A program made the translations under genes and the position numbers. Source: an uncultured bacterium (GTDB lineage: Bacteria > Bacteroidota > Rhodothermia > Balneolales > DATFMH01). From it: a DNA stretch of 64,000 nt. The first letter of the stretch is position 1; each line of letters begins with the position of its first letter. Below the pieces are notes generated by a model. It was not told the origin of the DNA. It made no database searches and worked only from the letters and a program-made list of their open reading frames with translations. Of this stretch, positions 1-12,935 are shown piece by piece. Location: the NCBI GenBank assembly GCA_963783355.1, contig CAWANF010000001.1:326776-390775 (forward strand). The letters run 5' to 3'.

Positions 1-860
1 CATCCAACATTTACTTTGTTACCTCCGATTCCCTCAAAGGCCCTGTTCATACAAATGGAACAATTCATGTTTCCGGCAACCCTGTATTTGAAGGCCAGGT
101 GACCAGTCCAAATCAGTGGTCAGGTTCCGGAAGCCCCAAATTCTTGGGAGGATATAACTTTAACAGCAGTTCGGTACAGTTGCCTACCAATTTTACTGCT
201 CTCGATAATATGGCATCCAATGGTGGTTTACAATTTTCAAATACTATAAAAGTCCTGTTTAATTCAGATGGAACTGTAGATATCAGTCAGCAACAAAAAA
301 CATGGGGAGGTTGGACCGTAGGATATGTTTATTCCTGGAGTACTCCCCAATCGTATGATCTTTCGAATTATAATGGAGTAATCACTTCCAGTCAAAATGT
401 ATACGTTCAGGGAGACTTGAATGGACAGGTTACTATTCATTCGGATGGAAATATTCATATAACCGGAGATTTAACCTATGCCGACAATCCGGTGACAGAT
501 CCAAATTCGAAAGATATGCTGGGCCTGGTCAGTAATAATAATGTTATAGTTGACGATGGTGCCGAATCGGTAAATGGTACGAATGATTTAACGATACAAG
601 CCAGTATTCTGGCTTCTAATTCCTTCTACGTACAGGATTATAATAATACGTATATCGGCACGAGAGGAAACTTAAACTTATTAGGTGGCGTCATACAAAA
701 TACCCGCGGCCCAGTAGGTACTTTTATGTCGTATGGTGGAAATATCACCAGCGTATCGGGTTACAGTAAAAGATACGATTACGACAACAGGTTAATGAGT
801 CAATGGCCACCGGGCTATCCACTTGAAGATTCTTATTCTATTGTATCCTGGAAAGAATAA
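1..860 (+). CDS. Large PilX-like pilus-associated protein, 5'-truncated by the window edge (paralog of 11688..12935)
   Basis: The reading frame is open from base 3 (SNIYFVTSDSLKGPVHTNGTIHVSGNPVFEGQVTSPNQW...) and is collinear with residues about 130-415 of the 11688..12935 product. The listed GTG at 99 is therefore internal. Both copies share the C-terminal block GYSK.Y.YDNRLMS.WPPGYPL.DSYSIV.WKE. Confidence 0.6.
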   Translation, partial: SNIYFVTSDSLKGPVHTNGTIHVSGNPVFEGQVTSPNQWSGSGSPKFLGGYNFNSSSVQLPTNFTALDNMASNGGLQFSNTIKVLFNSDGTVDISQQQKTWGGWTVGYVYSWSTPQSYDLSNYNGVITSSQNVYVQGDLNGQVTIHSDGNIHITGDLTYADNPVTDPNSKDMLGLVSNNNVIVDDGAESVNGTNDLTIQASILASNSFYVQDYNNTYIGTRGNLNLLGGVIQNTRGPVGTFMSYGGNITSVSGYSKRYDYDNRLMSQWPPGYPLEDSYSIVSWKE

Positions 861-889
861 GAAGTCATTTTCACCTGTAATGATCGATA

Positions 890-935
890 GCGGATAAACA
901 AAATATTTATTCTTTGTTTATCCGCCTTCTGTTTT
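890..935 (+). terminator. Rho-independent terminator after the first PilX-like gene
   Basis: Perfect 13-bp stem gcggataaacaaa (890-902) / tttgtttatccgc (913-925) with a 10-nt loop, followed by T-rich cttctgttttgtt. Confidence 0.6.
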
Positions 936-1478
936 GTTAAATTGATGGTTTGAAGCCTTTTACGCAAATTTATATTAAAATAATATAATTATTTAGATAT
1001 TTATTAAATGCAATAATAACAATTATTTATATATCTATGTAATTAAATTTATTAAAAATTTTTAATCAATATATTTGCACTTGATCGGAAAACATCTAAA
1101 TTTGAAAGAAACTCAAGATCTATCGTTAAAAGGTTTATTGTGCCTGTTAATGATACTAAATATCGGGGGGCTAATGACAATAAGTATTTCGTTACTTATC
1201 GTTAGCAGAAATATTAAAAAATACATAGAATGGGTAATTCAAAAATTTAACCCTATAGCATATCTTCCCCCTGTAAAACCCGAAATCATACAAGAATTTC
1301 GGAAATCTCCTTTTAAATTATATATCTATAAATCATTATTTATTATAGTATTAAGGGCTATAGTATCTGTGTGCTCCGATGATTTTGAAGATTTTAGCTG
1401 TCAGGTGGAATGTTTACCTGCAAATAAATTTCGTATAAAAATTTATCCAATATTCAGAACTAAACGATTGGAATTTAA

Positions 1479-2720
1479 ATGGAAGTGAGTAACCAACTTA
1501 TCGACCTTCATGAATTACTAAAACCTCTCATTCAGAAGGTTCCTAAGTCTGTCACCGGCATAGAACGTCATTTGAAAATTGCAGATATCATAGAACAGCA
1601 ATCGGATGAGTTCAGAATGAAACTCAGGCAGATCATAGACTTTTACCTGGAAGAAATGATTCGTCTGGAAGCATCTGATATTGATTTGGGTGGTCCTGGC
1701 TGTGATGGCAAAGTATGGTATCGGGTATATGGGGATAAAAATCCAGGGATAGAGAAAGATACTTATTCGCTCACGGAAACGGACTTCTTGCTACATAACA
1801 TTTTGATGCCCCAGCAAAGAGAATACCTGTTGGAAGAGCGGAATCTGGATTTTTCATACATGATTAATGAGTATTCAGACACTCCGCAAAGATATCGTGC
1901 CGACATGTATTTTGATCTGGATCACCTGGCTCTGAATATGCGTAAGATTGATAATACGATTCGATCATTCAAGGGACTTGGCTTGCACCCTGAAGTAGCA
2001 AAAGCCCTGAGCCTGAAATATTACAAATATGGTATGTCACTGGTAACGGGGATAACGGGTTCGGGTAAGTCTTCAACGTTAGATACCATAATTGACGCCA
2101 ATAACCGAACATTACCAGCACATATAATTATTATTGCATCACCTGTTGAGTTAATTCATCAGCCGATAAAATCTATCGTTCGGCATCGTGAAGTCGGTAA
2201 AGATGTTAAATCCTTCAAAGAAGGTGCTATTCAGGCTTTACGTCAGGATCCCGACATCATTATGATTGGAGAGCTTAGGGATCCTGAAACCATCATGACG
2301 GCACTGGAAATTACTGATTCAGGCCATAAAACTTTCAGCACACTACACACATCGTCAGCTATGGAAAGTATTGAACGTATTTTGGGAGAAGTTCCAGTAG
2401 CTGAGCAGGAGCGTGTGAGGAATCGTTTAGCTGACGTGCTCACTTGCGTTATCAGTCAAAAGTTGGTATCGAGTGTCGACGGAAAACGAGTTTTGGCAAA
2501 AGAAGTTCTGATAACAACTCCTTCGGTGAAAGCTGCTATTCGAAATAATAATATCGGTGAAATATATCAGATGATGATGGAAGGTGGTGATACTGGCATG
2601 CATTCCATGGAGCAAGATCTAAAAAGATTATATGATGAGGGGAAAATTACCAAAGATGAGGCATTAAACAATGCCAATAACAAAAAACGTTTGGCTGACC
2701 TTTTGAAATATGCGTATTAA
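1479..2720 (+). CDS. pilT: Type IV pilus retraction ATPase, PilT/PilU family
   Basis: Walker A GITGSGKSSTLD, Asp-box/Walker B DPDIIMIGELRD, His-box GHKTFSTLHTSSA. The N-terminus has ASDIDLGG in place of the usual ASDLHL. Size and the lack of a GspE-type N-domain fit PilT. An alternative ATG at 1617 would give a more canonical protein of about 367 aa. Confidence 0.85.
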   Translation: MEVSNQLIDLHELLKPLIQKVPKSVTGIERHLKIADIIEQQSDEFRMKLRQIIDFYLEEMIRLEASDIDLGGPGCDGKVWYRVYGDKNPGIEKDTYSLTETDFLLHNILMPQQREYLLEERNLDFSYMINEYSDTPQRYRADMYFDLDHLALNMRKIDNTIRSFKGLGLHPEVAKALSLKYYKYGMSLVTGITGSGKSSTLDTIIDANNRTLPAHIIIIASPVELIHQPIKSIVRHREVGKDVKSFKEGAIQALRQDPDIIMIGELRDPETIMTALEITDSGHKTFSTLHTSSAMESIERILGEVPVAEQERVRNRLADVLTCVISQKLVSSVDGKRVLAKEVLITTPSVKAAIRNNNIGEIYQMMMEGGDTGMHSMEQDLKRLYDEGKITKDEALNNANNKKRLADLLKYAY

Positions 2721-2744
2721 TCACTCATTAAAATACCCGGCACC

Positions 2745-4439
2745 TTGAGTAAAAAAGAATTCGTTGGCTTAGTACTTGATGGAGATATCATTCAGGTCGC
2801 ACATCTTTCGATTGCGAATAAGAAGCTTTATCTCTCAAAAATTGATAAAATTACTCTTTCAGAGAATCCTGAAAACCATAAAAACAACACCGAAGATGAT
2901 TTGGGGTTGGAAGATGTTTTCGGAATTGAAGAAACGGTAGAAGCGGAAGAATCGAATAGCGAAATTGATGATAAATCGGGTGAGGAAGATGATATTCTAG
3001 CCTTGGTGGGTGAAGATGATCCCGAAATTCAATCCGATGAAATGGTGATACAAGGACTGCTTTCCAGTATCAATATGAAGCAGGTTGATATCGGATTGAA
3101 TATTCCATCGGGAACAACGGTTTTTCAGGTTTTCAAAGATGAAAATTATAAAGACCTGAAAAATAAAGAACTCCTGGAAATCATACAGGACAAACTCGAA
3201 ACACTGTATGGTTCTCCGAAATCATCTGACAGTTTTGCCCGGGAGATTCGTTCTGACGGCGCGTTAGTCTTGGCCTCCAATGAGAATGAGTCGGTATTTC
3301 TGGATTTGGTTGAACGGAGTAAAACATTATATCCCGGTAAGGTATTTATCCGGGAAGTGTTGCCTGACGAAGGAATATTAATAGATTTGGTTCGGGCTAA
3401 TTACCAATTAGATGAAAATGAAGTAACCGGTATCGTTTTACTGGGAACTAAAACAAGTCGCTTGATTTTCATGAAAGGCCGTGAGCTTTGGCTGGTTTCC
3501 CCTGTCATTAATGAAGGAAAAAATTCGAGCCATGTGCTTGGCACTATATTCAGCAAAATCTTATTCCAGCTAGATGCCGGGGAACTGCCAAGTCTCGAAC
3601 GTATCATACTGGCTAACAATTGGCTAGGTGAGAAATCAGTAGATTTTTTTCAGAAAAACTTTCCTGATATCCTTGTTGAGGAATTCAAATTTAATCCCGA
3701 AAAAATTGAATTTGATTCCAAACTAGATGAAGAAGCGGTCAGCCATTATACAACAGCTATTGGAATTGCGTGGGCGGCAACCGGATTAAATGCTAAGGAG
3801 TTCAACAATTATTCATTTTTACCTGAATATATCAGGGAGCGTCAAAAACTGTTCAAACTGGAATGGCATGGTGTTGTTCTGTTATTACTGATAGCTTTAA
3901 CCCCCATTTGGTTCAATCATTTTTATGGCATTAATAACAATAGAATTTTAAAGCTGAAGAATGATTTGGAAAGAACACAGATCCAATTGAATAATATTCA
4001 TTCCATCGTCGTCGGCACCAATTACTTAAGCCAGAAATACACCACTGATAATGAACGACTGAAGTATGTTAAAGAATTGAGTGGAGGTACGTTAAAGTGG
4101 AGTACGACGCTGCAGATTATCAATGATGGTTTTAAAAATATCAAGGGAGCATGGATAACATCAATGCAAACAGCCAAAAACGGGATATCCATTCAGGGTT
4201 ACAGTTTATACCGGGATAAAATTCCTGAAATAACGGCAATTTTTGCTAATGCCACGCTTCAAAGTGTAAGTATTGCCAAAATAAGAGAATTGCAGGCTTA
4301 CAAGTACAGCATTTTTATTAATAAGGTTGTTAGTGATTCCGCAAAATTTTCCCCGATTCATAATGAAAAATCAAATTATGCTTTTGATTCCGGGAAAATT
4401 AAGAGCGGACTCTTGACTTCGGTTAAAGATCATAAATAG
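2745..4439 (+). CDS. PilM-like (actin-fold) N-terminal part fused to a PilN-like TM plus coiled-coil part
   Basis: TTG start. The N-terminus EFVGLVLDGDIIQVAHL resembles the first strand of PilM/FtsA-like proteins. One TM helix (GVVLLLLIALTPIWFNHFY) lies about two-thirds along, followed by a coiled-coil-like segment (LKLKNDLERTQIQLNNI), as in PilN. An acidic low-complexity insert follows the first ~45 aa. The gene sits between pilT and a PilO-like gene. Confidence 0.55.
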   Translation: MSKKEFVGLVLDGDIIQVAHLSIANKKLYLSKIDKITLSENPENHKNNTEDDLGLEDVFGIEETVEAEESNSEIDDKSGEEDDILALVGEDDPEIQSDEMVIQGLLSSINMKQVDIGLNIPSGTTVFQVFKDENYKDLKNKELLEIIQDKLETLYGSPKSSDSFAREIRSDGALVLASNENESVFLDLVERSKTLYPGKVFIREVLPDEGILIDLVRANYQLDENEVTGIVLLGTKTSRLIFMKGRELWLVSPVINEGKNSSHVLGTIFSKILFQLDAGELPSLERIILANNWLGEKSVDFFQKNFPDILVEEFKFNPEKIEFDSKLDEEAVSHYTTAIGIAWAATGLNAKEFNNYSFLPEYIRERQKLFKLEWHGVVLLLLIALTPIWFNHFYGINNNRILKLKNDLERTQIQLNNIHSIVVGTNYLSQKYTTDNERLKYVKELSGGTLKWSTTLQIINDGFKNIKGAWITSMQTAKNGISIQGYSLYRDKIPEITAIFANATLQSVSIAKIRELQAYKYSIFINKVVSDSAKFSPIHNEKSNYAFDSGKIKSGLLTSVKDHK

Positions 4440-4454
4440 TAAAGTTGCAAACAT

Positions 4455-5303
4455 ATGTCATATGCTTTAAGAAATACCTTGATTTTATTAGCTGTTCTGG
4501 GAATTCTTTCCTTTAGCGGATGGGGTTATTTGCATTTCATACAAAGTAAAGAAATTGTCACTTTAGAAGCGCAGATTAAAAGTACAAAGCAAAAATTGAG
4601 GAATGATAACAATGTTGCCGATCGGTACCAATCGGTTTTAAAACAATATGTTATCATGCAGGCCAAGCTTCAGCAATTCAATAAGGTGTTGTTTCCGAGG
4701 CTTGATGCCAGTGATGTATATGCTTATTTGGATAAGGTAAGTCGTGGAAATGCTTATTTAAATATTAATTTCACTCTGAAAGATTCGGTTAAGCACGAGA
4801 AGTATGGCTACATAAAAAGCAGCCTTGTGGGGGATGGGAATTACAGAAACCTGTATAATCTCATTTATGTATTAGAACATAGTAGAGCAATCAATAAAAT
4901 TCAAAATTTGGTTATTAACCCTGTTAACGAAGTGGATAAATACAGCCAGGTCAACTATTCCTTTGATCTGGATAGCTATTACGACAGGAGCCCGTCACCT
5001 GAAAAAGTATCTATAAAGCTGGTTAGTTCCGGTGGCAAGGTTAGACGTAATCCATTTTATCCATTGATTCGCAGTATAAAACCAAATGATGAAAACCTGC
5101 CTAATGTAGAACAGAGTAAGCTGCTTGCCGTAGGTACGAACTTTATTTTTATGGTCGACCAGGATGGCAAGATTGATAAACTGTCAATCGGTGATAAAGT
5201 ATATCTTGGAACGCTCGATACTGTAAATATTACCCAAAAGACAGCCACTTTTATGCTTAATAAAGGCGGAATTTTAGATAAAGTAACCCTAAAGGTCCAG
5301 TAA
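4455..5303 (+). CDS. PilO-like bitopic protein with a possible PilP-like C-terminal beta domain
   Basis: N-terminal TM helix (TLILLAVLGILSFSGWGYLHFI) followed by a coiled coil (LEAQIKSTKQKLRND). The C-terminus (KLSIGDKVYLGTLDTVNITQKTATFMLNKGG) resembles the PilP core. The stop abuts the secretin start (5303/5304). Confidence 0.45.
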   Translation: MSYALRNTLILLAVLGILSFSGWGYLHFIQSKEIVTLEAQIKSTKQKLRNDNNVADRYQSVLKQYVIMQAKLQQFNKVLFPRLDASDVYAYLDKVSRGNAYLNINFTLKDSVKHEKYGYIKSSLVGDGNYRNLYNLIYVLEHSRAINKIQNLVINPVNEVDKYSQVNYSFDLDSYYDRSPSPEKVSIKLVSSGGKVRRNPFYPLIRSIKPNDENLPNVEQSKLLAVGTNFIFMVDQDGKIDKLSIGDKVYLGTLDTVNITQKTATFMLNKGGILDKVTLKVQ

Positions 5304-6545
5304 ATGTCATCAATGCAAAGAACATCTATCCCCAAAATCCTTTTAATGCTTGCTGTAGGGTTCCTGCTTTTGGGAACCACAGTATCACAATCGTTTGCCC
5401 AGGATAAATTACCGGTTCGGGAACATACGAATCCGGACGAAATGATTTCTTTGGGTAAAGATATGTCTTTCAGTCAGGCAATTGATATTCTGAATACTTT
5501 TTCTCAAAAGTTTGATAACAAATTCATTCTCAATCGATCTACTGCAAAGGGGGCGATTGGTGTGAGTCTGCCTCCGATGTATTGGTACGACGCTCTTAAG
5601 TATATTACTGAGACAAAAGGGATTGTAATAGAACCACACGACAAATATTACGAATTGAAAGATGCCCCGTCTGAAAACAATAACCAGGTTCAGCCGACAG
5701 CAGCCAATGGTCAAAAAGGCCCCAAAATTGATACAAAAACACGGGAAGTGCGTATATCAGCTACATTCTTTGATGGGAGTCGTACTGCTTTCCAGGAACT
5801 GGGCATCGATTGGTCGACATTTAAAGATGGAATTGTTCAGATTGGTGGAACCGGCGCAACGTCCGTGGCCAATGACTACTTTTCTGTTCAAACGCTGAAA
5901 CCGATTGAGATAGGACATGGTATATCAGTTCAGGGATTATTTAAAGCTTTTGAATCAAAAAATCTTGGTCAGATATTGGCGCGGCCGACAATCAAAGTCA
6001 TGGATGGGATGGAAGGCCATATTCAGGTAGGTCAGGACTTTTCTATCAATCAGCGTGATTTCGCAGGAAACGTGGTGACAAAGTTCTTTAGTGTCGGTAC
6101 CATTTTAACTGTTACACCGCATATTATCACAGAAAACGACACTACGTTTATTTATATGAAACTGCACGTAGAGCGTTCGACCGCCCAGCCGGACCCGGTT
6201 AGTACAATCGTCAATAAGCAATCTGCTGATTCCGATATTATGCTGTTAAGCGGGGAATCCACAGTTATTGCCGGACTATATCAGACAGAGGTTAATAAAA
6301 TCAGAAAAGGTATTCCTATCTTAAAGGATTTGCCGGCGTGGTTTTTCGGGCTCAGATATTTATTCGGTTATAATTCGAAAGAATATAAAGAGCGGGAACT
6401 GGTAATTTTGATTAAAGCAAGTATCGACCCGGGCCTCAAACAGAGAATGAAAGAAGAAAAGAAATCAACACAAGAGATTTTGGATCACGAGCGTGCAAAA
6501 ATGAATAAAGAAAATGAAATTTCAAAAAAGGGAACGAAATACTAG
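5304..6545 (+). CDS. pilQ: Secretin (PilQ/GspD family), short form
   Basis: Signal peptide ending SFAQ. Secretin-domain hallmarks are present: ILARPTIKVMDGMEGHIQVGQDF, GTILTVTPHI, SGESTVIAGLYQ, GIPILKDLPAWFFGLRYLFG, RELVILIKASI. At 413 aa it has no room for AMIN domains. Confidence 0.85.
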   Translation: MSSMQRTSIPKILLMLAVGFLLLGTTVSQSFAQDKLPVREHTNPDEMISLGKDMSFSQAIDILNTFSQKFDNKFILNRSTAKGAIGVSLPPMYWYDALKYITETKGIVIEPHDKYYELKDAPSENNNQVQPTAANGQKGPKIDTKTREVRISATFFDGSRTAFQELGIDWSTFKDGIVQIGGTGATSVANDYFSVQTLKPIEIGHGISVQGLFKAFESKNLGQILARPTIKVMDGMEGHIQVGQDFSINQRDFAGNVVTKFFSVGTILTVTPHIITENDTTFIYMKLHVERSTAQPDPVSTIVNKQSADSDIMLLSGESTVIAGLYQTEVNKIRKGIPILKDLPAWFFGLRYLFGYNSKEYKERELVILIKASIDPGLKQRMKEEKKSTQEILDHERAKMNKENEISKKGTKY

Positions 6546-6567
6546 TTGTTAATTCTGAAAATGTGTT

Positions 6568-6608
6568 AAGCCCTGACTGAATTAATATTGGTCAGGGCTT
6601 TTATTTTA
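6568..6608 (+). terminator. Rho-independent terminator after the secretin gene
   Basis: Perfect 10-bp stem aagccctgac (6568-6577) / gtcagggctt (6591-6600) followed by ttttatttt. Confidence 0.7.
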
Positions 6609-7068
6609 TATAGTCTTTTGGGTGGTGTCTATCCTTATTCATCAGGTCGATTCTTAAGAAATAGTATGTTTTGTCTTTTTATTCCCATCTTTTGGCAGGT
6701 ATCTCAAGGTTTTCAAGATTAGATTTATAAGTGATATTGAGAAATAGCCCTAATTAAAAAGGTTATATCACAATCTTATTTGAAAATTTGATGAAAGTTT
6801 AATTAATCCGATCGGTTAGCAATTACGAATTGTTAATAGAGGCTAATGAAAAATGTGGTTTAATGTTCTTTCAGATATTGTGTAATTCCTGTTAATTTTA
6901 AGGAAAATAAACAGATAAGATCGATGTAATTTGCTGGGGGATAACTATTAGATGTTTATAACATAACTGATAATAAGAATATCTTTCAGTACTATTTCAC
7001 TAAGTAAATGGCAAAATTAGGGTCATAATAAGGGTAAGATAATCAGCCATTTTATTAATGAGGGATAA

Positions 7069-7467
7069 ATGGGTCAACAACAGTTACTCATCGTACTAAT
7101 AGTCGCTATTATAGTCAGTATAGCAACGTTATTAGCGGTTAACATTCTGAAAATGAATGCAAAAACCTCTAATCGTGATTCGGTAAGACAGGATGTTTTT
7201 ACGATAGCGGCAGAAGCTCAAAGCTGGTATATCAAACCTCAGGTTTTAAAAGGCGGCGGCAATACTTTTAAAGGGGTGAATTTTGACAAAATAGGTTTTG
7301 GTTACGATTCATTGATAAGCGAAACAGATGTGATGAACGGCAATGGGGAATACAAAATGGTGGTAACCGATTCGGTTATCACAGTTACAGCCATACCTGT
7401 TCATGATAAACAAAATGTATTGAAGGCAAAGATAAAACGAGCTGCAATAACAATAGAAAGCGATTAA
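7069..7467 (+). CDS. Pilin-like protein with a non-canonical N-terminus (candidate major subunit)
   Basis: 132 aa. The N-terminus MGQQQLLIVLIVAIIVSIATLLAV is a pilin-type hydrophobic helix but lacks F/M-T-L-I-E and has no Glu at +5. An in-frame TAA at 7066-7068 excludes a longer leader. The gene is first in the pilC-pilB unit, with GAGGGA upstream of the ATG. Confidence 0.5.
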   Translation: MGQQQLLIVLIVAIIVSIATLLAVNILKMNAKTSNRDSVRQDVFTIAAEAQSWYIKPQVLKGGGNTFKGVNFDKIGFGYDSLISETDVMNGNGEYKMVVTDSVITVTAIPVHDKQNVLKAKIKRAAITIESD

Positions 7468-7541
7468 TAGTAGTATCACGGATTTGGGTATGTTTAATAA
7501 AATTGAAAATAGAAACCAAAAAACTCAGATGAGGGGTCGTT

Positions 7542-8885
7542 ATGGCATCATTTAGATTAACAGGTATTACGGCCCAGGGGAAAATTGTTCAGGGTGAATT
7601 TGAAGCCCGTAGCAAACACGAAGCAAAACGCAGAGCTGAAAAATTAGCTAACAGCAGACAGTTTTCAATTAAATCCATTGAACAAAAGGGGATCTATTCA
7701 TATAAAGTAAATCGTCCTGGAAAACTTAAACCGGTCATTAAAGGACAACAGGAAGCCTATAATAAAGAAGAAGTTGAAAAGGCATTAAACAAACTGGGTT
7801 ACAATGTTCTGCGCATCGAAAAGCAGCTGATTACTTTTAAAACAAAAGTCCCGACAAAAGATATAGTTACTTTTATCAGGTTGTCTGCTGATTTATTAAA
7901 GCAAAAATTGCGTTATGATGAGATTTTAAGCCTTTTATACGAGGACACCCAAAACAAGGGTATGAAAGAAACCATCAAACAGATACAGAAGGATCTAAAA
8001 GATGGTAAAGAAGGGGCAGATGTTTATAGTAAACACGAAGATGTATTTGGGGAATTTGCAGCATATATGCTGAGCGTAGCTTCCACAAGTGGTAATATGG
8101 CCCTGGTTTTTGAAAGCACAGCAAAATTTTTAGAAAGGAAGGCGGCGTTTCGGCGTAATTTGAGAAAATCATTACTCATGCCTTCCATTACGGTTCTTGC
8201 TGTCATCGGGGTCACGTTATTTTATATCGGTTATATTTTCCCGGCAATGTCGGAGGTATTTTTAACACTGAAAATTAAGTTGCCTCCAATGACTGCTGCA
8301 ACATTGAATTTCAGCCATGCACTGCAAAACAACTGGATGTTTATACTGATGTGTTTGTTTACACCGATTGCAGCTTTCGTTACATATATCCAGACATCCA
8401 ATGGGAAGCTCTGGCTCGATCGCACCATTATCAAGCTGCCTGTCATTGGTGATTTGATGCATAAAACGAGTATCGAAATTTTTGCCCGCGTTTTTTACAC
8501 ACTGTATAGTGGCTCCGGACAAAATATAGAGGTCATTCGTACTGCAGCCGAAGCTTGTCAGAACAGATATATGGAGCAAAGAATTAAAAATATAGCGATT
8601 AAGAATATGCTTCAGGGTGGGGCCGGACTTGTAGAATCTTTAGAAGAAACAGAAATATTTACTAAGACTGCTCTTAGTCGATTCCGCTTGGGGGCTGAAT
8701 CGGGTTCATTGAAAGAAAATGCAAGACAGCTTGCTGAATATTATGAAATACAAACAACGTACAAAATGGATACAGCTGTCGATGTAATAAATTTATTTGT
8801 GAATTTCTTCATAATGATAGCACTTACCGCTATTACCATTATTTCATCAGAAACAGCAATCATTCAACCGCATTTTGGCGGATAA
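7542..8885 (+). CDS. pilC: Type IV pilus platform protein PilC (T2SS F family)
   Basis: 447 aa with a duplicated GspF-like architecture: two cytoplasmic helical domains, each followed by hydrophobic helices (LAVIGVTLFYIGYIFPAM; FFIMIALTAITIIS). The N-terminus is PilC-like (FRLTGITAQGKIVQGEFEA). Confidence 0.85.
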   Translation: MASFRLTGITAQGKIVQGEFEARSKHEAKRRAEKLANSRQFSIKSIEQKGIYSYKVNRPGKLKPVIKGQQEAYNKEEVEKALNKLGYNVLRIEKQLITFKTKVPTKDIVTFIRLSADLLKQKLRYDEILSLLYEDTQNKGMKETIKQIQKDLKDGKEGADVYSKHEDVFGEFAAYMLSVASTSGNMALVFESTAKFLERKAAFRRNLRKSLLMPSITVLAVIGVTLFYIGYIFPAMSEVFLTLKIKLPPMTAATLNFSHALQNNWMFILMCLFTPIAAFVTYIQTSNGKLWLDRTIIKLPVIGDLMHKTSIEIFARVFYTLYSGSGQNIEVIRTAAEACQNRYMEQRIKNIAIKNMLQGGAGLVESLEETEIFTKTALSRFRLGAESGSLKENARQLAEYYEIQTTYKMDTAVDVINLFVNFFIMIALTAITIISSETAIIQPHFGG

Positions 8886-8906: not shown

Positions 8907-10685
8907 ATGGCAAAAGTAGATACTAGACGACATATTGGTGATATCCTGGTGCAGAGAGGAATCATTTCTGATGAGCAACTTTCCCAGGCACTGAGTATTC
9001 AGGATAAAAGTGTCGATAATTCACCGCGTAGGCTTGGCCAGATATTAAGTACCAAAGTAGGTATCGACCGGCATCTTGTTATAAAAGCAATAGCTGAAAT
9101 TTATGCTTTCAGAGAAATTAATCTCGAGGCCCAGGATTTTAATAAAGATCATCTCAAGAATATCAAAAACCTGATTAATCGCCTGCCTAAAGATGTTGTC
9201 GAAGAATTAATGTTGCACGATGCCCTGCCATATTCTACCAGTAATGACCGTATTATCATTGCTACATCCGACCCTACCGATCCCGTTATCCCTAATCTTG
9301 CCGAGAAATTAAACTTTAAACATTACGAATTGGCCTATTGCAGGGCTGAGAATCTCAGTAAGCTGATCAACCTGGTTTATGAACAGAAAAATGAATTCCT
9401 GGAACTGTTAGATGAAATAAATATTGATCAGTCCGGCATCATTCCCGATGACGATGATGAGATTGATGAAGATGAAATTGATGCTGAAATCAATCAAAGT
9501 ATGCTAAATTCCCTTGTTGAGGGAATGTTGATTGAGGCCGTTCATCAGGGAGCCAGTGATATTCATATCATTCCACAGGATCCGACAACAAGTGTCATTC
9601 ATTTCCGGATAGATGGAAAGCTAAAAGTCTGGCACATGGTAGAGCATGTAAAACCGGAAGCCTTGACGGCTGTGATCAAAGATAAATCTCGTAATGTAGA
9701 CCGGTTTGAGCGTGAAAGCTCACAAGACGGTTTTATTCAACGAAAAATAGACTCAATAAATATCCGCTATCGTGTATCAATCATGCCTATTGTGGGGCAA
9801 GAGTTCGATCGTAAGTTTGAATCTATTGTTATTCGGGTTCTGGATGACAGAAAAGTTATTAGTGATTTAAACAAACTTGGCTTGCAAAAAAAGGCGAAAG
9901 ATGACTTCGTTAAGGCGATTAATAAACCATCCGGAATCGTAATCATTACCGGCCCGACCGGTAGTGGTAAATCAACGACACTGGTTGCTGCTCTTTATTC
10001 TGTAATTGATCCGACTAAAAATGTTCTCACGGTCGAGGAACCGGTAGAATATCTCATTAAGGGAGCCAGACAATTAAAGATCAGTAACCATATGACATTT
10101 GATCAGTCCATGCGTGGTATTCTTCGTCACGACCCGGATATTGTTCTTGTTGGTGAGATTCGTGATTTAAAAACAGCTGAAATTGCTATTAAACTGGCAA
10201 ACACGGGCCACCTGACCTTCTCGACTTTGCACACGAATGATGCGCCAAGCGTAATTTCTCGTCTTTATAAGATGGGAGTTGAGCCATTCCTGATAGCAAA
10301 TGCCGTTAATTTGGTTATGGCCCAACGCCTGGTAAGAAAATTATGTGATCATTGCAAAGAAGAAGTAACTGATTTGGAACCAGAATATGCCAAAGGCCTT
10401 GGTTTTAATGATGAAGAAATAAAGAATACGAAATTTTATAAACCGGTCGGTTGTGAACATTGTCACGGTGGTTACAAAGGCCGGGTAGCAATTATGGAGG
10501 CACTCTATTTCTCAAAAAACATTAAGAAAATGATTTTGACCTCCGGCAGCGACATTGATGAAGAAATGATTCGCGATCAGGCCATTCAGGAAGGGATGCT
10601 TACATTACGGGCTTCCGGACGGGAACGGATTAAGGAAGGCCTGACAACAATGGAAGAAATTGCTGCAATTACAGTAGGAGAATAA
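8907..10685 (+). CDS. pilB: Type IV pilus assembly ATPase PilB (GspE family)
   Basis: Walker A GPTGSGKSTTL, Asp box DPDIVLVGEIRD, His box GHLTFSTLHTND, tetracysteine Zn motif CDHC...CEHC. The N-terminus is a T2SSE_N-like domain (GDILVQRGIISDEQLSQAL). Confidence 0.9.
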   Translation: MAKVDTRRHIGDILVQRGIISDEQLSQALSIQDKSVDNSPRRLGQILSTKVGIDRHLVIKAIAEIYAFREINLEAQDFNKDHLKNIKNLINRLPKDVVEELMLHDALPYSTSNDRIIIATSDPTDPVIPNLAEKLNFKHYELAYCRAENLSKLINLVYEQKNEFLELLDEINIDQSGIIPDDDDEIDEDEIDAEINQSMLNSLVEGMLIEAVHQGASDIHIIPQDPTTSVIHFRIDGKLKVWHMVEHVKPEALTAVIKDKSRNVDRFERESSQDGFIQRKIDSINIRYRVSIMPIVGQEFDRKFESIVIRVLDDRKVISDLNKLGLQKKAKDDFVKAINKPSGIVIITGPTGSGKSTTLVAALYSVIDPTKNVLTVEEPVEYLIKGARQLKISNHMTFDQSMRGILRHDPDIVLVGEIRDLKTAEIAIKLANTGHLTFSTLHTNDAPSVISRLYKMGVEPFLIANAVNLVMAQRLVRKLCDHCKEEVTDLEPEYAKGLGFNDEEIKNTKFYKPVGCEHCHGGYKGRVAIMEALYFSKNIKKMILTSGSDIDEEMIRDQAIQEGMLTLRASGRERIKEGLTTMEEIAAITVGE

Positions 10686-10688
10686 TAA

Positions 10689-11072
10689 ATGGAACGTGCT
10701 GATTTAATTATGGTTATTGGGGCAATGATGATATTTTCGGTATTGTTACTGAACGTTAATAGATTTACAGTCCATAACGAAAAAATTAATACCGATATTG
10801 AGATTCAATATACAGCTCTGTCTATAGCACAGAATTTAATTGATGAAGCACGATGGAAATCGTTTAGTTCACTAAGTGATTACAATAACGTGAGTACTGT
10901 CGACTCTACCAAAGTGGGTGTATACCAGGTTGATTCAACGGTTAATTATGTAACACCTGATGATACCGAAGTAAATTCGGGAAGTGCTACTAACTACAAA
11001 CGGTTATCTGTAACAGTAAGTAGTAAATTAATGGCTCATCCGGTAACACTGAGCTATGTTAAAAGTAAGTAA
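10689..11072 (+). CDS. Small pilin-like (minor pilin-like) protein, non-canonical N-terminus
   Basis: 127 aa. MERADLIMVIGAMMIFSVLLLNV forms an N-terminal hydrophobic helix followed by a small globular part. Stop codons lie immediately upstream in frame (10683-10688). The gene follows pilB, where minor pilins usually sit. Confidence 0.4.
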   Translation: MERADLIMVIGAMMIFSVLLLNVNRFTVHNEKINTDIEIQYTALSIAQNLIDEARWKSFSSLSDYNNVSTVDSTKVGVYQVDSTVNYVTPDDTEVNSGSATNYKRLSVTVSSKLMAHPVTLSYVKSK

Positions 11073-11108
11073 ATTTCATAAATATTTGGGTTTGGGAGAG
11101 GTGAGTTT

Positions 11109-11663
11109 ATGAATAACACATTGATAGCTAGTTTTTTGGTTGGTGGAATTTTATTGCTGGCTATTTTAAAAGTTAGTAATAGGATGATCGTCAGTTCCGA
11201 TCAAACCACTATAAACCGCGTCATTAAAGAAAATGCTGATGATGTCGGGCAGGTTTTGGATCTGGATTTCAGAAGAATGGGAATGGGTATACAAAGTGGA
11301 GCCATTACCTTTGCTTCAGCTACTAAAATTACTTTTAAAAGTGATACTAGTGGTACCGGAACTCCTGATGTAATTACCTGGTCATTTGACCAGTCACAAG
11401 GAGTTTCTGTAACTCCTAATCCCGATGATCATCCATTATATCGAATTGTTAATGGAGTATCACATCGTGTGGGGATGGCCATTTCATCATTCCAGCTTAC
11501 ATATACTTTGAAGGATGGGACGGTAACCAGTACACCATCAGATTTATCCAACATCCGCCGGGTCGATGTCCAAATGGTCAACGAATCACCGGGTTCAGTA
11601 GGAAATGAATATTTGAAAACGTACTGGCAAAAATTATATATACCTGCAAATATTCAATTTTAA
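11109..11663 (+). CDS. Minor pilin-like protein (PilW-like size and layout), non-canonical N-terminus
   Basis: 184 aa. MNNTLIASFLVGGILLLAILKV looks like a degenerate FTLIE box (NTLIA, with Glu5 replaced by Ala). A GGGAGAGGTGAG Shine-Dalgarno-like motif lies upstream. There is no upstream in-frame start before the stop at 11079-11081. Confidence 0.45.
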   Translation: MNNTLIASFLVGGILLLAILKVSNRMIVSSDQTTINRVIKENADDVGQVLDLDFRRMGMGIQSGAITFASATKITFKSDTSGTGTPDVITWSFDQSQGVSVTPNPDDHPLYRIVNGVSHRVGMAISSFQLTYTLKDGTVTSTPSDLSNIRRVDVQMVNESPGSVGNEYLKTYWQKLYIPANIQF

Positions 11664-11687
11664 AAGTTTCTTTTTATCTGAAATATT

Positions 11688-12935
11688 ATGGGAAAATCTC
11701 TGCTAATAATAGTAAGCGGTTTATTGTTGGTATTCGGAATTCACCAGATATCCGTAAATAACCAACAGAAAGCTATGGCTGTTCGTAATATTAACTATGC
11801 AAAGAATCAACAGGCGAAAGATATAGCAAGCAGTATGGTAGCCATGGCTATAAGCAAGTTGAATTCCGATATAACCTGGAGAACCGGGTTAAGTTACCAA
11901 AATTTTTTGGGTGGAAGCGGATCTTTGACGGTCGAAGATAATTCTACTAATTCATCACTGGGTCCTTTTGATATTTTACTTTATGCAACCGGAATTTATG
12001 ACGGAACCAATTCAAATATCCAGGTTTTGATGAGAAGAACCTCATATTCAAAATTTGCTTATTTCACCAATGTTGAACCAACTATTTATTTTGTAACGGG
12101 CGATACCATTAAAGGCCCGCTACATACAAATGGAACCCTTCATATTTCAGGAAATCCCGTTTTTGAAGGAGAAGTGACTAGTCCGAATAACTGGAGTGGC
12201 ACCGGGAACCCTAAGTTTTTAAAAGGGTATGATTTTAACAGTCCAGCAATTTCTTTACCGAACAGCCTCACAGACCTGACAAATTCGGCATCCAGTGGCG
12301 GACTACAATTTACAACACCTTCCCAAATTATTTTTAACAGTGATGGAACGATTGACGTAAGTCAGCAGATAGTAACAAAAACCCGTACTTGGTATGGATA
12401 TGTTAATGTTTACAGCTGGGGTCCTCCTCAAACATACAATTTATCCAATTATAATGGCATAATATCATCAACAAAAGATATTTATGTCAAAGGAGACGTA
12501 AACGGACAGGTGACTGTTCATTCAAGTGGAAATATCCATATAATCGGAGATCTTACCTATGCTGATAACCCTATAACGAATCCAAATTCTACAGATTTCT
12601 CGGGATTGATCAGTGATAATAATGTCATAGTAGATGATGGTGCAGAAACAGACCACGGAACAAGTGACGTAACCATTGATGCGACGATTATGGCATTGAA
12701 TTCTTTTACTGTTCAGGATTATCAAAGTGGTTCCAGCCGAGGACAATTAAAGATTTATGGTGGTGTAGTACAGAATACCCGTGGTGCCGTCGGAACATTC
12801 AGCTCTTATTATGGAACGACTTATACCGCTTCAGGTTATAGCAAATTATATGAATACGATAATCGTTTGATGAGTCGCTGGCCTCCGGGATATCCGCTCA
12901 TTGATTCTTATTCAATAGTCACATGGAAAGAATAA
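11688..12935 (+). CDS. Large PilX-like pilus-associated protein (paralog of 1..860)
   Basis: 415 aa. The N-terminus MGKSLLIIVSGLLLVFGIHQIS followed by a helical region (NYAKNQQAKDIASSMVAMAISKL) has the layout of a PilX N-terminal domain. The C-terminal ~280 aa are repetitive and beta-rich. The protein ends with YDNRLMSRWPPGYPLIDSYSIVTWKE. Confidence 0.55.
   Translation: MGKSLLIIVSGLLLVFGIHQISVNNQQKAMAVRNINYAKNQQAKDIASSMVAMAISKLNSDITWRTGLSYQNFLGGSGSLTVEDNSTNSSLGPFDILLYATGIYDGTNSNIQVLMRRTSYSKFAYFTNVEPTIYFVTGDTIKGPLHTNGTLHISGNPVFEGEVTSPNNWSGTGNPKFLKGYDFNSPAISLPNSLTDLTNSASSGGLQFTTPSQIIFNSDGTIDVSQQIVTKTRTWYGYVNVYSWGPPQTYNLSNYNGIISSTKDIYVKGDVNGQVTVHSSGNIHIIGDLTYADNPITNPNSTDFSGLISDNNVIVDDGAETDHGTSDVTIDATIMALNSFTVQDYQSGSSRGQLKIYGGVVQNTRGAVGTFSSYYGTTYTASGYSKLYEYDNRLMSRWPPGYPLIDSYSIVTWKE

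Follow-up and report, generated by a model that had tools for sequence, protein, structure and literature searches.

Type IV pilins are defined, from archaea to bacteria, by a class III leader, an aspartyl peptidase and a glutamate at position 5 of the mature protein (Glu5), and the prepilin peptidase is treated as near-universal (PMC4471445). The locus described here raises the question of whether a pilus machine can work with a subunit that has none of the three. It lies in a stretch of 64,000 nucleotides (the window; positions 326,776 to 390,775 of contig CAWANF010000001.1, assembly GCA_963783355.1) from an uncultured bacterium of the order Balneolales and comprises an open reading frame (ORF) at 7069-7467, whose product begins Met-Gly-Gln-Gln-Gln (MGQQQ), next to the genes of a machine resembling that of type IVa pili (T4aP). 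The product of this ORF is likely to be a filament subunit. The complete model, in which it is the major pilin of a type IVa-like machine and needs neither a leader nor a peptidase, is favoured with somewhat less assurance.

The MGQQQ gene and its start codon

The ORF encodes a protein of 132 aa with the N-terminus MGQQQLLIVLIV and the C-terminus ITIESD (MGQQQLLIVLIVAIIVSIATLLAVNILK...AAITIESD when written out), in agreement with the length, the MGQQQLL start and the ITIESD end given in an earlier note made from the sequence alone. The same note had considered Gly2 as the -1 residue of a two-residue leader, and with that numbering position +5 is indeed Leu. A TAA codon (7066-7068) directly abuts the ATG on its 5' side and a GAGGG motif stands upstream, so that the start is fixed and a longer leader is impossible. 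Codon bias was tried as a proxy for high expression and gave no support: the codon adaptation index of this short gene, calculated against 23 ribosomal-protein genes, is 0.673, which places it at the 47th percentile of the genome, close to the median.

A large family with an invariant N-terminus

Neither Pfam nor NCBIfam holds a model for the protein or its family, the members found are all labelled "hypothetical protein", and no description of the family was found in the literature. A word-indexed search gave 34 homologues of 126-159 aa, all starting with MGQQQ. Since this search and the locus scan were biased toward the motif, three motif-independent checks were run. A hidden Markov model (HMM) search of 1.84 billion representatives of clusters formed at 50 % identity returned 2,378 matches at E<=1e-3 and 1,665 at E<=1e-10; a family of 2,378 representative clusters means that the ORF is not a chance one. 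Among the best 150 of these 2,378 representatives, the great majority have the first profile position at residue 1 of the protein. An exact MGQQQ start was present in 129 of the 147 best HMM representatives, and the remainder begin with MGSQQ, MGTQQ, MGQKQ, MGQTQ, MAQQQ or LGQQQ (the last probably reflecting alternative start codons) or are multi-domain proteins. The family ORFs defined by blastp in the fetched loci likewise start with MGQQQ in 117 of 122 cases, the others with MANKE or MGQKE. An in-frame stop was found 0-5 codons 5' of the ATG in 90 of 129 MGQQQ ORFs and within 6 codons in 100 of them, and relatives carry GGAG-type ribosome-binding motifs 5-10 nt 5' of the ATG.

All five residues of the pentapeptide (M1, G2, Q3, Q4 and Q5) are invariant in the 35 aligned sequences (alignment A1), as are P57 and G62. 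Conservation peaks over residues 1-27 and then drops, except at N35-R-D37, A50, K56-P57 and G61-G62; an invariant N-terminus and a variable C-terminal head characterise the family. Residues 1-25 are uncharged in 153 of 165 members, and the hydrophobic segment (residues 6-27) contains helix-breaking glycines (G12, G17 and G23), and 105 of the 165 have no Cys. Ala is the only substitution seen at Gly2. Judged by sequence, the proteins constitute a large unnamed pilin-like family with members in phyla of the Fibrobacteres-Chlorobi-Bacteroidetes (FCB) type.

The head module (NRDA..L..LA..A..Y..P.S.GGG..Y.G... beta-sheet) was also encountered as 2-5 tandem repeats in proteins of 330-800 aa (P0035, P0036, P0037, P0095 and P0122). 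In most of them ordinary Sec- or lipoprotein-type signals replace the MGQQQ helix, and P0036 has a hydrophobic anchor. It appears that the pilin head was reused as a secreted repeat domain.

Search for a prepilin peptidase and a canonical pilin

The genome containing the window (4.37 Mb, 96 % complete) has no match to PF01478 (Peptidase_A24) or PF06750 (the N-terminal domain of that peptidase) and no homologue of the A24 protein of Balneolales. There is no PF07963 (N_methyl) pilin anywhere in it, hence none that could be the major subunit in place of the MGQQQ protein, a possibility raised in the earlier note; the product of ORF 7069-7467 has no PF07963 class III leader either. As positive controls, both peptidase models match in 12 of 14 control genomes and the N_methyl model in 8 of 14, the single-protein search being one without a control.

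Across the order, 81 genomes that are each >=90 % complete were compared, and PF01478 was found in only 9 and was absent from 72. At the one locus inspected (L083 1381-2445, genome G048) the A24 peptidase gene stands directly beside a canonical prepilin gene (…ESG/FSLTELLIVLAIIG) and PilO/P-like genes; the prepilin carries the sequence G/FSLTELLIV, and the adjacent A24 peptidases are 214-222 aa long. The MGQQQ operon occurs without PF01478 in Fodinibius roseus DSM 21986, in a metagenome-assembled genome (MAG) of the Ignavibacteriaceae and in a Kryptoniota MAG, and the peptidase is present in Gracilimonas tropica and in a KSB1 MAG. From these occurrences, a canonical pilin and the peptidase travel together, as seen at the one inspected locus, and genomes with the MGQQQ system may or may not have the two. 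The second, canonical system of the minority of Balneolales (9 of 81) resembles the so-called type II secretion system ('T2SS') of Cytophaga hutchinsonii.

These results bear on the proposal of the earlier note that the protein is a prepilin with a Met-Gly leader, cut after Gly2 by an unrecognised enzyme to leave Gln3 as residue +1, perhaps as pyroglutamate. Gly2 is as invariant as the Gly(-1) of class III signals, with Ala as the only substitute, the DUF4900 partner family also starts MG[RK], and an N-terminal Gln could become uncharged pyroglutamate and so make Glu5 unnecessary. Such N-terminal Gln chemistry is used in related phyla under the Bacteroidetes Q-rule, but that rule concerns substrates of signal peptidase I and is not valid throughout the FCB group (PMC5837995). 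The searches gave the cut at Gly2 no support: all three found no prepilin peptidase in the genome, the same is true of most relatives that carry the family, and no extra conserved gene of the operon is available to supply the activity. In addition, Gly or Ala at position 2 would equally be required by methionine aminopeptidase, and Gly2 is missing from partner proteins encoded downstream, namely those of 184 aa (MN...) and 127 aa (ME.., MF..). A leader of two residues is for these reasons considered unlikely. No type I glutaminyl cyclase (PF05096) was found, and the idea of a pyroglutamate N-terminus formed after Met-Gly removal, though attractive, was rejected.

The leaderless reading, which is also the simpler one, is favoured instead, because no peptidase is available, because the partner proteins are equally short at the N-terminus and not all have Gly2 (MN..., ME..., MF...), and because of the place of an acidic residue in the partners and paralogues. 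Counted from Met1, the 127-aa family has a Glu or Asp at residue 5-6, and the rare MANKE and MGQKE paralogues have a Glu at residue 5. This is approximately the position of Glu5 in a mature pilin, as expected if no leader is removed.

Predicted architecture of the candidate subunit

The full-length AlphaFold2 model, built from a 35-sequence alignment, consists of a helix of 54 residues (2-55) followed by five strands, with a predicted local distance difference test (pLDDT) score of 83 and a predicted template modelling (pTM) score of 0.67. Residues 28-132, modelled alone from an 85-sequence alignment, gave a pLDDT of 96.5 and a pTM of 0.88, and comprise a helix (2-28 in the truncated numbering), a Gly-rich loop and six strands. 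In these models the order of helix, loop and beta-sheet matches the layout of type IV pilins, and the predicted helix is one of about 50 residues with a hydrophobic first half, as in pilins. The pilin layout suggested in the earlier note agrees with the order of the predicted elements, but Foldseek gave no significant match to solved pilins, and a comparison with class III signals and with Flp/Tad pilins produced a match to neither. No T2SSG/GspG model matched the protein or the 35 family members. The Flp/Tad model PF04964 hit 1 of the 35 at E 0.2, and PF07790 hit 1 of the 35 at E 0.05 or worse; the genome of the window has no A24 peptidase match, and its machine is not of the TadABC type. Of three features that define pilins, the protein has neither a class III signal nor Glu5, and no cognate peptidase was found; it resembles pilins in the predicted order of its elements and in its genetic linkage.

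The net charge of the flank that follows the hydrophobic segment averages -1.3 in the family, so that an orientation with the N-terminus inside and the C-terminus outside would not conflict with the positive-inside rule.

Several observations weigh against the leaderless-pilin model. The same flank has a net charge of +2 in the protein of the window, unlike the family mean. Foldseek searches of the PDB with the full model and with the head alone found no pilin (best E 0.24), a profile search of PDB sequences gave only PilE1 at E 4.2, and no pilin family of Pfam or NCBIfam was matched significantly. An hhalign comparison with 22 canonical Balneolales pilins aligned 86 columns, covering the helix and the first strands, at E 5e-4, but the probability was only 30 %; homology to known pilins is plausible but not demonstrated. 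There is no Glu5, since residue 5 from Met1 is Gln (Leu if Gly2 is -1). The genome is 96 % complete and may encode a divergent or non-homologous peptidase, and no type IV pilin or T4aP-type system without a prepilin peptidase was found described in the literature.

Gene order and type of the machine

At least 522 loci were found to encode an MGQQQ relative, mostly in Balneolales and otherwise in Ignavibacteriota, KSB1, Gemmatimonadota and Kryptoniota; cultured carriers are Gracilimonas tropica DSM 19535, Fodinibius roseus DSM 21986 and F. salsisoli. The order MGQ(x1-4)-PilC-PilB-(127/184/415-aa)-PilT-PilMN-PilO-secretin is kept in dozens of loci and recurs in Balneolales, Gemmatimonadota, Ignavibacteriota, KSB1 and Kryptoniota. 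The MGQQQ gene opens the operon, at the place of pilA beside pilC and pilB, and is often present in tandem (1-4 copies per locus). Of the 81 genomes compared within the order, 69 have the pilin family and 69 a PilM-N fusion; 66 have both and 9 have neither, and each of the 6 that disagree is a fragmented draft. The genomes without the two belong to three different families (f2, f5 and f7). Related genomes are not independent, and no statistic was attached to these counts. In the window, pilC starts 74 bp 3' of the pilin-like ORF and the terminator scan found no terminator between them, which agrees with the claim of the earlier note that the ORF is the first gene of a pilC-pilB unit.

A very improbable explanation of the data is that the protein builds no filament and is a bitopic accessory protein of the inner membrane, anchored by its uncleaved N-terminal helix. 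Its lack of detectable sequence or Foldseek likeness to pilins would suit such a role, as would the missing leader, Glu5 and peptidase, and the tandem repeats of the head behind Sec signals (P0035-P0037) mean that the head could be a soluble or periplasmic module. Against this stand the pilA position of the gene, the 1-4 copies per locus with diversified heads, the helix-loop-beta-sheet order and the lack of any other candidate for the major subunit in the genome; moreover, the roles in the alignment complex are already taken by PilM-N and PilO. The designation as a major structural subunit, made in the earlier note, is supported by the operon-first position, the tandem copies, the combination of an invariant N-terminus with a variable head, the predicted architecture and the absence of a canonical pilin.

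The machine genes were identified by Pfam and NCBIfam profile searches. PilB, PilC, PilT, PilM/N/O and a secretin, the components expected of a T4aP machine, are all encoded in one locus. Because several scores fall below the equivalog cut-offs the machine is a divergent one, and from its gene content it is related to, and presumably works like, the type IVa pilus. It could also be asked whether the protein acts in a secretion machine, as a major pseudopilin that forms a short piston in the periplasm, like that of type II secretion, and no surface pilus. The secretin is short (413 aa), PilC scores best with the GspF model and Bacteroidetes have T4aP-derived systems that are used in secretion (PMC6668835, PMC5553014). 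This explanation is nevertheless quite unlikely, given a PilT retraction ATPase in the operon (TIGR01420, 313 bits), PilB and PilM-N-O of T4aP type, and tandem, highly variable paralogues of the kind typical of exposed pilins; furthermore, the described secretion system of Bacteroidetes is encoded by a different locus, which supplies both a canonical pseudopilin and a dedicated peptidase (PMC5553014).

A model of leaderless assembly and its relation to known systems

According to the leaderless model, the primary translation product would start where a mature pilin starts, with the polar cap M-G-Q-Q-Q followed by a 22-residue hydrophobic helix, an amphipathic helix and a small beta-sheet head. 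Such a protein would be made without a class III leader and would not need a prepilin peptidase. Methionine aminopeptidase has a specificity for small penultimate residues, and since Gly2 is an optimal penultimate residue for this enzyme, Met1 at most would be removed; its gene, map, is presumably the one that follows secY in the ribosomal operon, an assignment made from position. The subunit would insert in the inner membrane with the N-terminus inside and the head in the periplasm. PilB and PilC would pull it out of the membrane and build it into a filament whose assembly is primed by the three pilin-like proteins encoded downstream; this filament would pass out through the secretin, and PilT would retract it. 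In the filament core, the uncharged Gln triad would replace the charge pair formed by Glu5 and N-methyl-Phe1 in canonical pilins.

In comparison with the type IVa pilins PilA and PilE, the MGQQQ protein is of similar size (about 130 aa), and is predicted to have the same N-terminal helix, first hydrophobic and then amphipathic, and a small antiparallel beta head. Its gene lies beside pilB and pilC in a locus with PilT and a secretin, the N-terminus is conserved and the head variable, and helix-breaking Gly residues occur in the hydrophobic segment of the family. Unlike those pilins, it has no positively charged leader, Gly-Phe cleavage site, Glu5 or PF07963 match, most members of its family have no disulfide-bonded D-region, and neither a PilD/A24 peptidase nor a methyltransferase domain was found in the genome of the window.

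The 'T2SS' of Cytophaga and other Bacteroidetes (CHU_3195-3201; PMC5553014, PMC6668835) is similarly T4aP-derived and comes from the same superphylum. A copy of this type exists alongside the MGQQQ system in 9 of the 81 Balneolales genomes. It has, however, the canonical pseudopilin G/FSLTELLIV and its own adjacent Peptidase_A24 (PMC5553014; PMC6668835), and the MGQQQ operon has neither, but has PilT. The loci of MSH pili also contain no prepilin peptidase gene (PMC6668835), and the PilB described here has an N-domain of the MshEN type. MSH pilins nonetheless carry class III signals and rely on a peptidase from another part of the genome; in the survey of type IV filaments, MSH loci lacking a peptidase gene were noted only where the enzyme was encoded at another site (PMC6668835), whereas none was found in the genome studied here. 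Tad/Flp (type IVc) and archaeal pilins show that class III signals can vary: they are short, with unusual leaders, and have their own peptidases (TadV, PibD and FlaK). The MGQQQ proteins differ from Flp pilins in having no Flp motif, and their machine is of the PilB/PilT/PilMNO/secretin type and not TadABC.

The wider claim is that MGQQQ proteins are an unrecognised class of type IV pilin, ancient and widespread across five lineages, synthesised as mature proteins and polymerised by a motor of the T4aP type without a prepilin peptidase, with the Gln triad in place of leader, N-methyl-Phe1 and Glu5. We regard the chances of this claim as even. Were it true, there would be a clade of T4aP-like machines that lack leader, peptidase and Glu5, leader cleavage would not be mechanistically required for extraction from the membrane and polymerisation, and the pilins of several phyla that are abundant in the environment would be escaping current annotation pipelines. 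With a Pfam or NCBIfam model of the family, pili could be recognised in metagenomes of Balneolales, Ignavibacteriota, KSB1 and Gemmatimonadota. Cultured carriers exist and would offer a natural system in which to examine what the pilin N-terminus does.

Terminator and upstream spacer

The features of the locus are collected in Table 1.

Table 1. Position and basis of the features assigned at the MGQQQ locus (window coordinates)
Feature	Position	Strand	Basis or remark
PilT	1479-2720	+	TIGR01420 at 2e-93, 313 bits vs cut-off 319
PilM-N-like fusion	2745-4439	+	Weak PilN match
PilO-like protein	4455-5303	+	Weak PilO match
Secretin, 413 aa	5304-6545	+	PF00263 at 6e-31
Intrinsic terminator 3' of secretin gene	6568-6610	+	Hairpin 6568-6600 and T-run
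AT-rich non-coding spacer, presumed promoter and 5' untranslated region of the pilin-pilC-pilB unit	6609-7068	+	460 bp
Conserved block A (CCCATCTTTTGGCAGGTAT)	6684-6702	+	<=2 mismatches in window, L085 and L086
Conserved block C (GGGGGATAACTATTAGATGTTTATAACA)	6936-6963	+	About 130 nt 5' of ATG
Conserved block D (TCTTTCAGTACTATTTCA)	6982-6999	+	About 87 nt 5' of ATG
Shine-Dalgarno-like GAGGG	7060-7064	+	4 nt 5' of ATG
MGQQQ-family pilin-like gene, candidate major subunit	7069-7467	+	132 aa
Invariant N-terminal pentapeptide M-G-Q-Q-Q	7069-7083	+	Homologue alignment
Hydrophobic helix segment, residues 6-27, pilin alpha1-N equivalent	7084-7149	+	Within predicted helix 2-55
Amphipathic helix (alpha1-C), G-rich loop (KP..GGG) and beta-sheet head	7150-7464	+	Truncated AlphaFold model
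PilC/GspF-type platform protein	7542-8885	+	PF00482 at 5e-28; TIGR02120 and PilC models
PilB-type assembly ATPase with MshEN-type N-domain	8907-10685	+	PF00437 3e-103; TIGR02538 1e-132; PF05157 4e-6
Three pilin-like genes without class III signal (127, 184 and 415 aa)	10689-12935	+	Last one DUF4900

A strong terminator and a gene-free AT-rich stretch of about 460 bp upstream of the pilin-like gene had been pointed out in the earlier note, and both are real features of the sequence. Downstream of the secretin gene, which ends at 6545, the terminator hairpin has a stem of 13 bp, 6 of them G-C pairs, which closes a 7-nt loop and is followed by a T-run; 0.5 terminator-like sites would be expected in shuffled sequence, and the hairpin is kept in the close relatives L085 and L086. 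The GC content of the spacer is about 0.28 vs 0.38-0.44 in the flanking genes. Its four ORFs of 20-44 aa all start with TTG and none is credible; they have no counterpart among the called genes of L085 and L086. In another close relative, L087, the spacer contains two small called genes that are missing from the other relatives.

In L085, L086 and L087 the secretin gene is likewise followed by a gap (524-669 bp) and the pilin gene, the pilins being 94, 86 and 76 % identical to that of the window, respectively. Three blocks of the spacer are conserved in this group. The core of block A is kept in L087, yet with more than 2 mismatches over the block. Block C is near-invariant in the window and all three relatives and ends 105-107 nt from the start codon, and block D is identical at 18 of 18 positions in the four sequences although the pilins are only 76-94 % identical. 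Blocks C and D are at nearly fixed distances from the ATG. Block D was not found 5' of the MGQQQ pseudogene described below, and the three blocks seem, by the sequences compared, to be specific to the genus-level group of the window.

A riboswitch or structured leader was considered but found no support: an Rfam search of 6300-7600 at E<=1 gave sub-threshold noise over the terminator only, and the fold of 6915-7075 is not a stable one (z-score -0.99). No sigma-70-like site was detected on the + strand of the gap, nor was any sigma-54 (GG-N10-GC) or Bacteroidetes-type (TTG-N17-21-TAnnTTTG) motif found conserved among the four close relatives.

The spacer in front of the first MGQ gene in 63 other loci has a median length of 343 bp (about 100 to 1,451 bp) and an A+T content that typically exceeds that of its own locus by about 10 points, and the gene upstream is often divergent; the gene therefore typically opens its operon. 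From the upstream terminator, the invariant spacer blocks and the AT-enriched spacers of relatives, it is sensible to infer that the pilin-like gene has its own promoter, with regulatory sites in the spacer, and is co-transcribed with pilC-pilB. Transcription would then start within the 460-bp spacer. The independent expression envisaged in the earlier note is thus supported indirectly, by the terminator, the invariant blocks and the operon-opening position in most relatives.

Neighbouring genes and the paralogous module

The N-terminal hydrophobic helices of the three pilin-like proteins encoded downstream of pilB begin at residue 6 or 7. Each of these families has its own conserved, leaderless N-terminus, M-x-x-x-(S)-E/D-L-I in the 127-aa family, MN... 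in the 184-aa family and MG[RK]xLL in the DUF4900 family (homologues in L001, L027, L038, L056, L062, L063, L069-L071 and L078). The 127-aa protein gave a weak match to PilV (E 1e-4), but its identification as PilV was rejected, the match being obtained with only 1 of 11 homologues. An hhalign comparison of the 127-aa family with the MGQQQ pilin family gave a probability of 8 %.

An older paralogous module precedes the PilT gene and lies mostly upstream of the window, its last part occupying window positions 3-860, with its end at 860. It consists of pilC2, pilB2 and pilin-like genes of 128, 184 and 416 aa and is 45-74 % identical to the module studied here. Its MGQQQ gene (G000:C1:321629-~322040), some 5 kb before the start of the window, is pseudogenised, with one frameshift and with TGA and TAA stops in frame, and is located behind an ORF-poor, AT-rich spacer of 1.37 kb. 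Since this paralogue is broken, ORF 7069-7467 is the only intact MGQQQ copy in the genome.

Also outside the window, and divergent from the pseudogenised pilin module, a gene at G000:C1:319551-320252 (-) encodes a protein of 233 aa, which, judged by eye, has a helix-turn-helix N-terminus and a LexA/CI-type S24 C-terminus. This LexA/CI-like gene was rejected as a regulator, having no counterpart near MGQQQ genes in the other fetched loci.

In L085, the closest relative, the region of PilT, PilM-N and PilO (381-5422) is called as many short genes, which may be due to frameshifts of a long-read assembly or to real decay of the machine. At the N-terminus of the PilB of the window (8907-9100), a model of an MshE-related motif that binds cyclic di-GMP scored 37.4 bits, just under its 38-bit cut-off, which suggests that pilus assembly could be controlled by cyclic di-GMP.

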